NCBI GenBank assembly: GCA_018716065.1
Contig: DVKJ01000017.1
Location: 2,031-66,030 of the forward strand
Length of the DNA stretch: 64,000 bases
Origin: Candidatus Pelethosoma merdigallinarum
Lineage (GTDB): Bacteria > Bacillota_I > Bacilli_A > RF39 > UBA660
Reading direction: 5' to 3'
Shown here in pieces: positions 18,030 through 21,941 of the stretch. The position numbers and the translations under genes were made by a program. The first letter of the stretch is position 1. Every line of letters begins with the position of its first letter. The notes beneath the pieces were generated by a model. That model was not told where the DNA came from and did no database searches. It worked only from the letters and a program-made list of their open reading frames with translations.

Positions 18030-18071
18030 AAAAGACGAAAAAAAAGAAAAACTGCTATACTAAAGCAGTTT
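18030..18071 (-). terminator. Intrinsic terminator of cold-shock gene
   Basis: Hairpin aaactgct-atactaa-agcagttt overlapping the csp stop, followed by T-run on minus strand. Confidence 0.4.
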
Positions 18072-18267
18072 TAATCTCAACAACGTTCTTTGCTTGTAAT
18101 CCCTTATCAGTTCTTACTAACTCAAATTGAACTTCTTGTCCTTCAACTAAAGTTTTGTATCCCTCTGATAAAATAGCAGAATAATGAACAAAAATATCTT
18201 CTCCATCTTTATATTCGATGAATCCGAAACCTTTGTCATTGTTGAACCATTTAACACGACCGGTCAT
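18055..18267 (-). CDS. csp: Cold-shock protein (CspA family)
   Basis: [20 protein letters not shown]1 motif; 70 aa; long AT-rich 5' UTR region upstream. Confidence 0.9.
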
Positions 18268-18608
18268 ATCTCACATCTCCCTTCTACTTCACAACTACAT
18301 TGTACCCCTTTCACCCTTCACATTTCAAGAAAATACGTTCGCCAAATTTCGACATTTTTTTCGCTATTCGCAAATTGTAGTTTTTGAAACATCTTAACAG
18401 AATGTTATCGGGTAATTCTAATTTTACAGGATTTATTCACTCACTTATCATTTTTTGTACGAAATATCCATTTTTGTCAATGAACGACTTTTTTTGCTTT
18501 AATTTAATTAAAATAATAAATTTCAAACATCAAAAGTTCGTTTTTAAGTAATTTTTGTGTTTTTTACACTAAAACATGAAATAATGTTTTCTAGGAAGTA
18601 GTGGTAGT

Positions 18609-19211
18609 ATGAGACAAAGATTTGTTAATGGAGGATATCAGTATATTATTCATTATCAACCCAATTTAGACCAATTAACAAAAGATAAAATAAAATATGG
18701 GTTAGAATCCTTCTATATCTTAATTACAAAACTTGTCTTTATCTTCTTCGTTGCATGGATCTTAAATATAGCTTTAGAAGTTCTTATCTTTCTATTTCTA
18801 TATAATATAATTAGAACAACATCTTTCGGACTACATGCGACAAAAAGTTGGATTTGTTTAGTATCTTCTACTTTAATCTTCATCCTCGTACCAATGATGT
18901 GTTTATATGTCGATATTCCAATCAACATAAAAACCATCTTAGGAGTTATAGGAACAATATGTATGATTAAAAATGCCCCAGCAGATACTTATAAAAGGCC
19001 AATAATTAATCCAAAACGCAGACTGATTTATAAAATATTATCTACAATTATTGCCCTCGGTTTAACCATTACTTCGATTTTGCTTGAAAATACATTTTGG
19101 GCAAATTGTTGTATCATGGCATTAGTTGTTCAATGTTTCATGATATCACCTTTAGTATATAAATTGTTTAAATTACCTTATAATAATTATTTAAAGTATC
19201 AACATTCATAG
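18609..19211 (+). CDS. agrB: AgrB-like accessory gene regulator protein B (AgrD-processing membrane peptidase)
   Basis: ~200 aa polytopic membrane protein with conserved His/Cys pair (GLHATKSWIC); followed 42 nt later by an AgrD-like propeptide. Confidence 0.7.
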   Translation: MRQRFVNGGYQYIIHYQPNLDQLTKDKIKYGLESFYILITKLVFIFFVAWILNIALEVLIFLFLYNIIRTTSFGLHATKSWICLVSSTLIFILVPMMCLYVDIPINIKTILGVIGTICMIKNAPADTYKRPIINPKRRLIYKILSTIIALGLTITSILLENTFWANCCIMALVVQCFMISPLVYKLFKLPYNNYLKYQHS

Positions 19212-19253
19212 TTATTTAAACATGTTTAAATATAGTAGTAAAAGGAGGTTAAT

Positions 19254-19376
19254 ATGAAAAGTTTATTTGCATCAATCCTTTCAATGTTTTCTGTAGGATT
19301 AGCGGATATGGGAAGCAGCGCATGTGTATTCGTTGTAATTGATGAGCCAGAAATGCCAGAAAGTTTAATTAAATAA
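19254..19376 (+). CDS. agrD: AgrD-like autoinducing-peptide precursor (40 aa)
   Basis: Not in ORF track. AGGAGG RBS 7 nt upstream; MKSLFASILSMFSVGLADMGSSACVFVVIDEPEMPESLIK has an amphipathic leader, a single Cys followed by a hydrophobic tetrapeptide, and a C-terminal acidic IDEPEMPESL recognition tail like S. aureus DEVEVPKEL. Confidence 0.6.
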   Translation: MKSLFASILSMFSVGLADMGSSACVFVVIDEPEMPESLIK

Positions 19377-19409
19377 ATGATTACTAAAAAATGTAAGGAG
19401 ATTAAACCC

Positions 19410-20732
19410 TTACATTTTTACTTTAATTATTTGTGACATAATATTCTTATAAATGGAAGTTTCACTCACTAAATTTTTTTCCTCTCTTAATATTTCTTTA
19501 GCCAAAGACAATCCATATCCATGTTTTCCACCTTTTGAGGTATAGCCCATTGTCCCCATTTTTTCAATATCTAACATTCCAGAAAAAGTGTTAGAAATCA
19601 ATACACAAAAATATCCTTCTTCCAAGAAAAATTCTATATCAATTTCTTTGTTTTTTAGTTTTTTAGCAGCATCAATTGCATTATCTAAATAAATACCTAC
19701 GATTTTCACGAACTTTCTCATAGTTTGAAAATCTATATTTTTTATTACCTTACTATTTACTTCTCGTCCAATCCTCAAGTCATAGTTAACTTTTAATTGT
19801 TCACATAACAACAGTTTATGATATACTAATCCACGCAATCCTCCTGATGGAATTGATAAAGTTAAACGATAAAGTTGGTCGTTACCTTTTAATTCTTTCT
19901 CAACTTTATCACAATCTTTAAGCATAGCTTCTATTTGTCTTTTCGCTTTGCTATTTCGCTTACTAATCAATCCATTCAATATAATTAAATCATTCTTGTT
20001 TTCATGAACATCTCTTCTATTTTTGTCTATTATATTTTCATATTCTACAGATTTATCTAACAAGCTTTCATACTCTGTCTTTATAAGTATACTCTTATTT
20101 TGTTCTTCCAAAAATTTGCATGTTAAAACTATATAAATACAAATAGTTGCCGAATTCAAAAAGAAAAACTGGATTGATGATAATTGATAATATGCACTAT
20201 AAATAAACAAGTTGGCAACCAACATCAATACTAATAAAATAAAAATTGTAAACTTAACATCAATTTTTTCACTTAATGAAAAAAGCTTACTTTCTAACTT
20301 AAAAAAACAAATTAGTTTAAAAGTTAAACTTGTTATAATTGCTACGCAAGCATTCATCAAAAAAACACCTGTATATTGAATAGCTAACGTCTCTATATCT
20401 ACCGATAATAAATAATATCCCACTATCACAAATACAAACTCTGAAAATATTAATAATAATTGACTCAAAAATACTGCTAATATTTTTGAACGAATATTGG
20501 AATTAAAACAAAAAGAACAAGTCAATAAACTTATAGAAAAAGTGATAATCAATTTTAAACTACTACTAACATACAAATTAATAAATACTGATGATATAAT
20601 TAAAAAGAATATCCAACACCATGATTTTTTTGATTTCCAATTAGGCTTTTCTTTTAAAAACTCTGACCAAATTTTAAAATCGATAAGTGTTAATAAAATT
20701 ACACTTAAAGTAATACTTATGACCTTAATCAC
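19410..20732 (-). CDS. agrC: AgrC-like sensor histidine kinase (HPK10 family)
   Basis: Polytopic N-terminal sensor; C-terminal GHKL ATPase with G-box GGKHGYGLSL; overlaps 8 nt with upstream LytTR regulator. Confidence 0.7.
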   Translation of the reverse strand: MIKVISITLSVILLTLIDFKIWSEFLKEKPNWKSKKSWCWIFFLIISSVFINLYVSSSLKLIITFSISLLTCSFCFNSNIRSKILAVFLSQLLLIFSEFVFVIVGYYLLSVDIETLAIQYTGVFLMNACVAIITSLTFKLICFFKLESKLFSLSEKIDVKFTIFILLVLMLVANLFIYSAYYQLSSIQFFFLNSATICIYIVLTCKFLEEQNKSILIKTEYESLLDKSVEYENIIDKNRRDVHENKNDLIILNGLISKRNSKAKRQIEAMLKDCDKVEKELKGNDQLYRLTLSIPSGGLRGLVYHKLLLCEQLKVNYDLRIGREVNSKVIKNIDFQTMRKFVKIVGIYLDNAIDAAKKLKNKEIDIEFFLEEGYFCVLISNTFSGMLDIEKMGTMGYTSKGGKHGYGLSLAKEILREEKNLVSETSIYKNIMSQIIKVKM

Positions 20733-21441
20733 AGCTCAACAACTCCTTTATATAATGTGATGAAACATAATCACATTGAATACCTGTGTCAAAAATTATT
20801 TTTTTATTTCTTTTATCGATAAGATTAATTCTAGAAGTATTTACAATACAAGAACGATAAGAAAATTTAAAATCATCTCCTAATATTTTCAACATTTCAT
20901 TTAACGGTTTAGATAGCTTAAATTCAGTGGTATCTGTAACAATGATAATTTTTCTTTCAACAGCGTCTCTTGTAATATATAAGATATCTTTTTCTGGGAT
21001 AGTAAAGATTGCGCCGTGATGTTCAAAACGAAGTATTTTGCTTTTACCGATTACTTGAACGCTTTTCCGGATGGCAGAAGCGAGACGTTTTTTATAATTA
21101 TCTAATTTATTAATGAACGTCAAAAACATGATTTCATCACGCAATAATACTGATCCTAATTCATCATGTGAGGTCAAGAAAATAATGACGCTATTCACAT
21201 CTTTGATTCTTATTTTTCGAGCGACATCGATTCCAGAAGAGTGTTTGGTTTCAATATCTAATATATAAATTTTATTGGATAAACGCTGGTTCATTACTTT
21301 ATAAAATCCTTGGTCATATTCAGTAAATGAGTGAATTTTATAAGCGTAATTATTTTTCATCATGACTTTTGCGATAATTTCTTTTACACTTGAAAGTATT
21401 TCTACTTTATCGTCACAAATTATAAAATTAATCATGAACAT
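20725..21441 (-). CDS. agrA: AgrA-like response regulator with LytTR DNA-binding domain
   Basis: N-terminal receiver domain; C-terminal LytTR (ILRFEHHGAIFTIPEKDILYITR...). Confidence 0.75.
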   Translation of the reverse strand: MFMINFIICDDKVEILSSVKEIIAKVMMKNNYAYKIHSFTEYDQGFYKVMNQRLSNKIYILDIETKHSSGIDVARKIRIKDVNSVIIFLTSHDELGSVLLRDEIMFLTFINKLDNYKKRLASAIRKSVQVIGKSKILRFEHHGAIFTIPEKDILYITRDAVERKIIIVTDTTEFKLSKPLNEMLKILGDDFKFSYRSCIVNTSRINLIDKRNKKIIFDTGIQCDYVSSHYIKELLSCD

Positions 21442-21563
21442 ACACTCCTTTAGTTTATTGTTATTTTTATGGTAGCATAGCTATTTTATAAAATCAATGA
21501 ATTTTTTGCCATATTTTGTATTTTTTTAACTATTAGCATATTTTTAAATCCGTTAAAAACGAC

Positions 21564-21941
21564 TTAAAGTCGTTCTCCATTTATGATTATGTTACACATC
21601 CAAACAACAAGAACTGCTAGTATAATCCACACTCCATACTTCTGTGAAATTCTTTCTATATATGCCAAATATTTGGTTTGATTTTTGATGATATCTACAA
21701 CGAGAAAGATCATAGATAATATGATAAATATAAATAGTGGTATAGCTAATAAGTTATATCGCAAAGATTCAAGAATATTACCTTGAAGAATTAATTTAAA
21801 TGCTCTTGTCATTCCACATCCTGGACATGGTATATGAAAATAATAATTAAAAGGACATACATAGGTAATGTCTAGAATGATGAATAAAATACCAAGAAGA
21901 ATCGGAATGAAGATCCAAAAAATATTAGTCAGTCGTTTCAT
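21564..21941 (-). CDS. DUF2752-family membrane protein
   Basis: CPFNYYFHIPCPGCGMTRAF signature. Confidence 0.5.
   Translation of the reverse strand: MKRLTNIFWIFIPILLGILFIILDITYVCPFNYYFHIPCPGCGMTRAFKLILQGNILESLRYNLLAIPLFIFIILSMIFLVVDIIKNQTKYLAYIERISQKYGVWIILAVLVVWMCNIIINGERL

Follow-up and report, generated by a model that had tools for sequence, protein, structure and literature searches.

Signalling by agr systems has been studied almost wholly in cultured pathogens. The staphylococcal version, a single agrBDCA operon with a divergent RNAIII, yields an autoinducing peptide (AIP) made of a five-residue ring and an exocyclic tail. Its LytTR repeats are of the 9+12-bp kind, and AIP and AgrC sensor co-vary in allelic specificity groups, four in Staphylococcus aureus and two to six in coagulase-negative staphylococci (PMC12312760). 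In Clostridium acetobutylicum, agr is divided between two transcription units, lacks an RNAIII and makes a six-residue, aliphatic, tail-less macrocycle, [CVLVTL] (PMC12312760, PMC3754575), and Ruminiclostridium cellulolyticum, a clostridium with four agrBD pairs, controls sporulation with Rc-AIP1 (cAIP, CWFWSY), likewise six residues and tail-less (PMC8251862). Here we describe an agr-type locus in a 64-kb stretch of Candidatus Pelethosoma merdigallinarum (contig DVKJ01000017.1; hereafter the window), where agrB and agrD on the plus strand face agrA and agrC on the minus strand. Judging from sequence comparison, we put the probability that this is a working peptide quorum-sensing cassette in two convergent transcription units at roughly 85%. 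Within the species of the window, the signal core and its receptor are linked alleles (pherotypes), all of them served by one AgrB.

In organisation and peptide type, the closest described relative of this locus is the agr system of C. acetobutylicum; in population structure, it is the staphylococcal agr groups. The two-unit arrangement, the predicted six-residue product and the lack of a known RNAIII-like family (an Rfam scan of the entire window gave 0 matches) are shared with C. acetobutylicum, but the units here are convergent and have a common terminator, an orientation for which we found no description in the agr papers we consulted. Nor do those papers mention within-species pherotypes for C. 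acetobutylicum. With staphylococci the locus has in common the chemistry of AgrB, AgrD, AgrC and AgrA with the catalytic His/Cys pair, the allelic co-variation of signal and sensor, and, at clade level, repeats of LytTR type, while it differs in its convergent layout, in having cspA rather than RNAIII as its divergent neighbour, and in the predicted size of its ring. Rc-AIP1 offers a further parallel, since its C+5 core lies directly before the follower peptide and its conserved pre-Cys residues suggest a tail-less product with a possible S-to-N acyl shift (PMC8251862); in contrast, the present locus is single, belongs to a small-genome, non-clostridial lineage, and has a product that is predicted. 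ComCDE, BlpRH and Pln also combine an HPK10 kinase with a LytTR regulator, direct-repeat operators and within-species pherotypes, but these systems use linear peptides with double-glycine leaders and ABC export, whereas the locus described here has AgrB and an AgrD-type precursor. Since a GG cleavage motif is missing from the 40-residue peptide, and neither the window nor related contigs have a transporter next to the locus, we do not regard this as a double-glycine pheromone system.

An initial annotation made from the letters alone had read the region as an agr-like quorum-sensing locus in which agrBD and agrA-agrC converge and the regulator comes first, with no classical collinear operon and no obvious RNAIII-like effector. 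That reading agrees with family models, catalytic residues, conservation of the small gene and signal/receptor co-variation; the open reading frame (ORF) list and the raw sequence place all its features where it had put them, and the gene order and strands give two convergent units with a terminator between them in place of a single agrBDCA operon. On the minus strand the regulator lies upstream of the kinase, and the 3' part of agrA overlaps the start of agrC by 8 nt. A tblastn search of the window found no second agrB, agrC or agrA. All comparisons drew on metagenome contigs or metagenome-assembled genomes (MAGs); a genome scan with an AgrB alignment gave 171 relatives, and from these we retained 80 loci. 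The convergent layout is kept in most of the species-level relatives that could be scored. In five loci (L013, L033, L055, L056 and L080) agrC and/or agrA lie 1.5-4 kb farther from agrD than usual, with the best AgrC match of L056 on the plus strand, and these layouts reflect insertions or rearrangements within the cassette.

The predicted product of agrB is a membrane cysteine endopeptidase/cyclase. It matches the Pfam AgrB family (PF04647) with 105.5 bits against a cutoff of 23, has four hydrophobic segments, and carries the catalytic His76 and Cys83 in FGLHATKSWIC. Loss of these catalytic residues had been named as grounds for abandoning the assignment, and both are invariant in our alignment of 22 homologues (alignment A1). 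Their seven-residue spacing is also that of H77 and C84 in S. aureus AgrB. A sequence search of the PDB with AgrB found no relative.

The kinase and regulator fit the same picture, and the domain families and structural matches agree with their earlier description as an AgrC-type HPK10 kinase and a LytTR regulator. AgrC matches HATPase_c_5 (PF14501) with 43.7 bits (cutoff 22), has about six or seven transmembrane helices in residues 1-208 by hydropathy, and retains His243 in the H-box RRDVHENKNDL, the N box YLDNAIDA and the G box GGKHGYGLS; its best PDB matches are S. aureus AgrC structures 4BXI and 6E52. AgrA matches LytTR (PF04397) with 44.2 bits (cutoff 22.6), has the receiver residues Asp10/Asp11, Asp62 and Thr90, and finds its best PDB match in pneumococcal ComE (4CBV), which covers essentially its full length (residues 6-223). 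Scores against the dedicated NCBIfam models lie far below equivalog level, at 37.9 for AgrA against its best match NF046049 (cutoff 400) and 58.4 for AgrC against NF046015 (cutoff 500), so that neither protein has equivalog-level similarity to its staphylococcal namesake. The ribosome-binding site AAGGAG stands 3 nt from the listed agrA start at ATG 21441 and 9 nt from ATG 21435; the latter is the more probable start, in agreement with other pipelines, which give AgrA 236 residues.

The 40-residue propeptide, MKSLFASILSMFSVGLADMGSSACVFVVIDEPEMPESLIK, had been described as an AgrD with a ribosome-binding site, an amphipathic leader, a single Cys and an acidic tail. Each of these features stands, and the peptide matches the NCBIfam model TIGR04223 (quorum_AgrD) with 30.1 bits (cutoff 19). 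It can be divided into a leader (residues 1-20), the pre-Cys residues S-S-A (21-23), the core C-VFVVI (24-29) and the acidic tail DEPEMPESLIK (30-40), with Cys24 as its only Cys. The gene had also been called unannotated, which holds for the ORF track that misses it but not for the public contigs carrying the locus, on which it is called as a gene; a look-up with the exact AgrB sequence located the locus on many metagenome contigs, where the gene order is unchanged and a 40-residue gene is called, and a protein search with the AgrD 40-mer gave 27 clusters. Lack of conservation in relatives was a further ground on which the prediction might have fallen. Of the 80 species-level loci, 72 have a similarly built peptide after agrB, the clade-wide pattern being a leader, G-S-x-A, Cys (Ser in one of the 72), five residues, and D-E-P-x-x-P-x-S-L-I-K.

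Codon differences among seven same-species alleles are distributed very unevenly along agrD. The leader has 56 synonymous and 0 non-synonymous differences and the tail 64 and 0, whereas the five-residue core has 10 and 70. With 120 synonymous against 0 non-synonymous differences in leader and tail together, agrD is evidently translated, and the codon pattern bespeaks purifying selection where AgrB must recognise the precursor and diversification of the signal itself. Among 29 close variants there are 21 distinct C-x5 cores, and each core position holds four or five different residues, compared with one to three at most other positions.

The same variation bears on the size of the ring, which the initial annotation had drawn as C-VFVV. 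The gap between the Cys or Ser and D-E is exactly five residues in 72 of 72 species, and Ile29 varies along with the remaining core. Because the variable residues number five, include the Ile and abut an invariant D-E-P, AgrB would be expected to cut before Asp30, and the macrocycle is probably one of six residues, C+5 (CVFVVI). The residues preceding the Cys are conserved clade-wide as G-S-Q/S-A, a pattern more suggestive of a protease site than of a tail that bears specificity. Molloy et al. showed that a tail-less product rearranges from thiolactone to lactam (PMC8251862), and by analogy the product here may also be a tail-less peptide that becomes a lactam. Of the earlier proposal of a thiolactone AIP, the AgrD-type macrocycle precursor is retained, while the final linkage may be different.

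A variation on this chemistry is seen in two relatives, L076 (5595..) and L085 (5602..), in which Ser replaces Cys at the cyclisation position (STSASPIVILDEP and GSEASLVVIFDEE), and for which lactone-type peptides are therefore predicted. Staphylococcus pseudintermedius likewise has a lactone-type agr peptide.

The polymorphism of signal and receptor is most apparent within the species of the window itself. Contigs with 100% identical AgrB carry other AgrD cores, together with kinases only 42-62% identical to that of the window. Look-ups with four AgrD variants added 24 further contigs, and the window species, with AgrB 0-1 residues different, has at least seven cores: CVFVVI, CVVLFV, CALVIL, CMVLIV, CLVVVI, CMVVVI and CVVLIV. 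A sliding comparison gives 97-100% nucleotide identity across about 9 kb for the flanks on both sides of the variable block, and we therefore assign these contigs to one species. Identity to the same-species contigs is 60-85% in the kinase half of agrC and 27-66% in the sensor half, and the sensor-coding half is effectively unalignable between alleles. Read base by base, the block begins at about 19316, inside agrD, and ends at about 20730-20900, leaving agrB outside. It can be contiguous because the convergent layout sets the 3' end of agrD against the 3' end of agrC.

Signal and sensor travel together in these contigs. Where the AgrD core is the same, the sensors are at least 99% identical (52 pairs from independent samples); where the cores are different, the sensors are 20-93% identical, and cores that differ by one residue have the closest sensors (93% for CMVLIV and CVVLIV, 80% for CLVVVI and CMVVVI). 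AgrB, on the other hand, differs by 0-1 residues over all seven pherotypes. This co-variation would imply strain-specific signalling and probably, as known from staphylococci, cross-inhibition. The staphylococcal hypervariable region, however, takes in part of agrB, with group-specific processing, and the 5' half of agrC, whereas here agrB lies outside the block and the entire agrC is divergent. In a sister species (L007 and L099-L104), whose AgrB sequences are 98.6% identical among themselves and some 80% identical to that of the window, we count at least two pherotypes, CIIVII and CMVLVI, with sensors 26% identical. Its CMVLVI sensor is 62% identical to that of the window species' CMVLIV allele, so allele lineages cross species, through either ancient balanced polymorphism or transfer.

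Table 1. Features of the agr locus and its surroundings, in coordinates of the window.
Feature	Position	Strand	Remarks
agrB	18609-19211	+	200 residues; PF04647 profile match; read from ORF list and raw sequence
agrD ribosome-binding site	19242-19249	+	AAAGGAGG; 5 nt before ATG 19254; read from sequence
agrD	19254-19376	+	40-residue propeptide; NCBIfam TIGR04223 match
Predicted macrocycle codons	19323-19340	+	Cys24-Val-Phe-Val-Val-Ile29; pherotype-determining
Hypervariable pherotype cassette	19316-20800	.	Core and tail codons of agrD, the terminator and the whole of agrC; certain alleles reach into the 3' end of agrA, up to about 20900
Bidirectional intrinsic terminator	19387-19419	.	12-bp perfect inverted repeat, 9-nt loop, T-runs on both strands; between the two stop codons
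agrC	19410-20732	-	440 residues; HPK10-type sensor histidine kinase; PF14501 match
agrA	20725-21441	-	238 residues as listed; receiver and LytTR response regulator
Candidate AgrA (LytTR) pair	18456-18465 and 18477-18486	+	TGTACGAAAT and TCAATGAACG; 21 bp start to start
Candidate agrBD -10	18509-18514	+	TAAAAT; activator-dependent, no good -35; 20 nt after the proximal 12-mer
Candidate divergent -10 toward cspA	18421-18426	-	TAAAAT; ends 29 nt before 18456; suggestive only
agrAC promoter, probable sigma-70	21469-21497	-	-35 TTGATT at 21497-21492, 17-nt spacer, extended -10 TGcTACCAT at 21477-21469
Hairpin and U-run after the DUF2752 gene	21553-21572	-	Separates DUF2752 from agrAC; -10.1 kcal/mol, z -3.3

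Regulation of the two units appears to be asymmetric. We searched 61 species for 10-mer direct repeats (at least 8/10 matching) at spacings of 12 to 33. Upstream of agrB, repeats at exactly 21 bp start to start occur in 27 of the 61, against about 6 at other spacings. Counted from the agrB ATG, their positions are -145 to -168, with the window's candidate pair at -153. Upstream of agrA the clade has no 21-bp enrichment. The repeat sequence differs among sub-clades; ten species share the half-site TGCACGAATGCA, and in these the pair is found once per roughly 10-kb locus, only in the cspA-agrB spacer and in agrB orientation, with no strong pair upstream of agrA. The pair in the window, TGTACGAAAT and TCAATGAACG, retains the (C/T)GAA core of the half-site matrix built from the ten species, but we treat it as a candidate because of its poor score against that matrix. 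Scanned over the 64-kb window, the matrix gave no significant match, with the candidate pair tenth on its own strand, and hence no regulon is predicted. LytTR repeats had earlier been anticipated in either 18268-18608 or 21442-21563. The first location finds support at clade level, and the second, which is 122 bp long and not 140 bp as had been given, does not.

On the agrA side, a repeat search of 21442-21563 returned no direct repeats, and a hand-found arrangement, ATAGTTAAA-N12-ATGGCAAAA (6/9), was rejected, given the lack of clade enrichment there and its misfit to the half-site. The motif TATGGTAAT, enriched upstream of agrA, was considered as an operator and likewise set aside, as it represents the extended -10 (TGnTAATAT) of a promoter with a TTGCA-type -35. 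The probable agrAC promoter of the window is homologous to the TTGCA-17-TGnTAATAT found in most relatives. Since this promoter looks like an ordinary sigma-70 one and the clade is enriched in 21-bp repeats before agrB only, the circuit is likely one of constitutive receptor and autoinduced signal, a scheme already put forward for the two-operon agr systems of clostridia. Between the units, the inverted repeat folds on both strands (-14.2 kcal/mol, z -6.2 on the plus strand; -13.2 kcal/mol, z -4.7 on the minus strand), each time followed by a U-run, which is why we read it as a bidirectional terminator. The hairpin that sets DUF2752 apart from agrAC is conserved in L007 and L010.

Taken together, these elements suggest the following course of events. 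Transcription of agrAC from its sigma-70 promoter, presumably constitutive, would supply a polytopic HPK10 AgrC and the LytTR regulator AgrA. AgrB, using His76 and Cys83, would remove the invariant tail DEPEMPESLIK and cyclise Cys24 onto Ile29 to give C-V-F-V-V-I, a step for which we rely on family chemistry and the fixed C-x5-DEP spacing. Some protease would remove the AgrD leader, and if this leaves no exocyclic tail, the thiolactone would rearrange into a lactam, as it does in clostridia. The peptide would be sensed by the membrane half of AgrC, and phosphorylated AgrA would bind the 21-bp-spaced repeats in the cspA-agrB spacer and raise agrBD transcription; such repeats are evident at the level of the clade, and the window's own pair is a candidate for them.

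Several observations weigh against this scheme. The two copies of the window's repeat agree at only 5/10 positions and score -1.7 against the sub-clade matrix, and no regulated target besides agrBD was identified. A regex screen of the window found no leader protease of the CPBP/MroQ type. The receiver domain of AgrA scores 29.6 bits against Response_reg, just under the cutoff of 30.2. Consensus promoter scoring cannot discriminate in DNA with the window's 29% G+C, nor can it fix the position of promoters relative to the repeats. Finally, a strict criterion finds no comparable -10 peak on the agrB side of the repeats, and the clearest positional -10 points toward cspA.

This last point raises a different possibility for the output of the system. 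The cspA gene (18055-18267, minus strand) is the divergent neighbour of agrB across the spacer 18268-18608, and phosphorylated AgrA might drive divergent transcription toward it, as a long-leader cspA mRNA or a small RNA in an RNAIII-like position, with agrBD expressed at a basal level. Anchoring on the repeat pair, we find that 23 of 35 species have a minus-strand -10-like hexamer at a distance of 26-29 nt from the distal half-site; relative to such a promoter the pair would stand at about -42 to -73. The agrB side has no equally sharp peak, and the plus-strand control for the same side rises more weakly, at 23-25 nt. Moreover, in 60 of 61 species-level relatives cspA and agrB are divergent neighbours, separated by 212-565 bp (300-360 in most), compared with conservation of the agrA-side flank genes (DUF2752 and TM2) in only 2 of 80, and the block 18330-18414 between the genes is conserved. 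However, cspA has a conserved promoter of its own nearer the gene, and its linkage may be plain synteny, because hpf and secA are also syntenic (50/60 and 47/60). AT-rich, palindromic -10-like strings fit either strand, all repeats are in agrB orientation, and the ten-species sub-clade has, by eye and unscored, a -10-like hexamer on the agrB side 19-22 nt past the proximal 12-mer. Consensus -35/-10 scores on the two sides of the repeats are uninformative (7.6 and 7.5 of 12), and an anchored information-content profile around the repeats is blurred by register jitter. We therefore consider cspA output in place of autoinduction rather unlikely, and are just as doubtful of a version in which the repeat pair is a shared operator of two divergent promoters, with cspA or its leader at 18330-18414 as a direct quorum-sensing output. 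If this were true, then together with the seven or more trans-species pherotypes that one AgrB serves, it would make the locus a switch by which gut bacteria of reduced genome size recognise strains and control an RNA chaperone.

The conserved block itself, and especially 18348-18372, holds TTCGACA-type elements (TTCGACA, TTCGCTA, TTCGCAA) that are enriched across species (z about 20) and stand in tandem with a 10-bp period in some of them. TTCGACA was entertained as an agr element upstream of agrB and rejected; it keeps a constant distance of about 85 nt to the cspA ATG, which assigns it to the leader or promoter of cspA. These elements may be a 'cold-box'-like leader or an operator, and the block has no Rfam match.

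Autoinduction by a cyclic peptide, which remains our preferred account, can also be set against a role in competition, in which the product of AgrB and AgrD would serve mainly as an interference or antimicrobial peptide against other strains or species while the kinase and regulator answer another cue. The AgrD cores are very hydrophobic, synthetic gut AIPs have been reported to inhibit pathogen biofilms (PMC11953309), and cross-inhibition between pherotypes is known for agr (PMC12312760). Yet the strict co-variation of AgrD core and AgrC sensor is what a ligand-receptor pair predicts and would otherwise be unexplained, and no immunity or export genes are adjacent to the locus in the window or in related contigs, so we hold this role to be improbable. 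That the polymorphism itself reflects assembly chimeras, or several species sharing a conserved agrB, is hardly credible: although all comparison sequences are of metagenomic origin and the exact-AgrB look-up pre-selects contigs with identical AgrB, every core/sensor combination recurs at 99% identity or more across independent samples and assemblers, both flanks stay near-identical over the 9 kb, the block boundaries are the same in all alleles, and look-ups based on AgrD also returned AgrB with 0-1 differences.

About 170 species-level genomes possess an agr cassette that is complete and maintained by selection, and wherever their source is given it is a gut metagenome. The relatives are MAGs labelled as uncultured Bacilli, Tenericutes, Mollicutes or Erysipelotrichaceae, with some records given as Muribaculaceae. 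Among them are a closed chromosome of 1.26 Mb and Candidatus Faecisoma merdavium, assigned to GTDB order RF39 by Gilroy et al. (PMC8035907). The best species representative has 79% AgrB identity to the window. A literature search combining RF39 with agr, quorum sensing or cyclic-lactone-autoinducer gave no match.

What distinguishes this locus is the convergent layout maintained over a large uncultured clade, the pherotypes that share one AgrB, and the trans-species alleles, with at least seven signal/receptor alleles in one species compared with four in S. aureus. The locus would be a natural system for the study of pherotype diversification and strain-level recognition in the gut. With one unchanging AgrB, experiments can be limited to exchanging peptide and sensor; the short cyclic hexamers can be synthesised directly and might aid in manipulating or cultivating these bacteria. 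The biology is of a kind to be expected, and its interest, which we rate as moderate, lies in a natural and experimentally tractable pherotype series in uncultured gut bacteria.

Same-species contigs also differ outside the cassette. Past the 3' end of secA, the segment 12609-14835 is a strain-variable island, unalignable among these contigs, that carries differing toxin-antitoxin or abortive-infection genes: SocA_Panacea with HTH in the window and L001, HigB in L002, AbiEi/AbiEii in L003-L006, and RhuM with an amidase in L006. The DUF2752 gene (21564-21941, minus strand) encodes 125 residues in the window and a truncated 82 in L004, L087 and L095, so some strains may have a frameshift or use another start codon. 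Beside cspA, one same-species NCBI MAG contig has an insertion sequence-type transposase (DDE_Tnp_1; L090:77-1861) in place of hpf.

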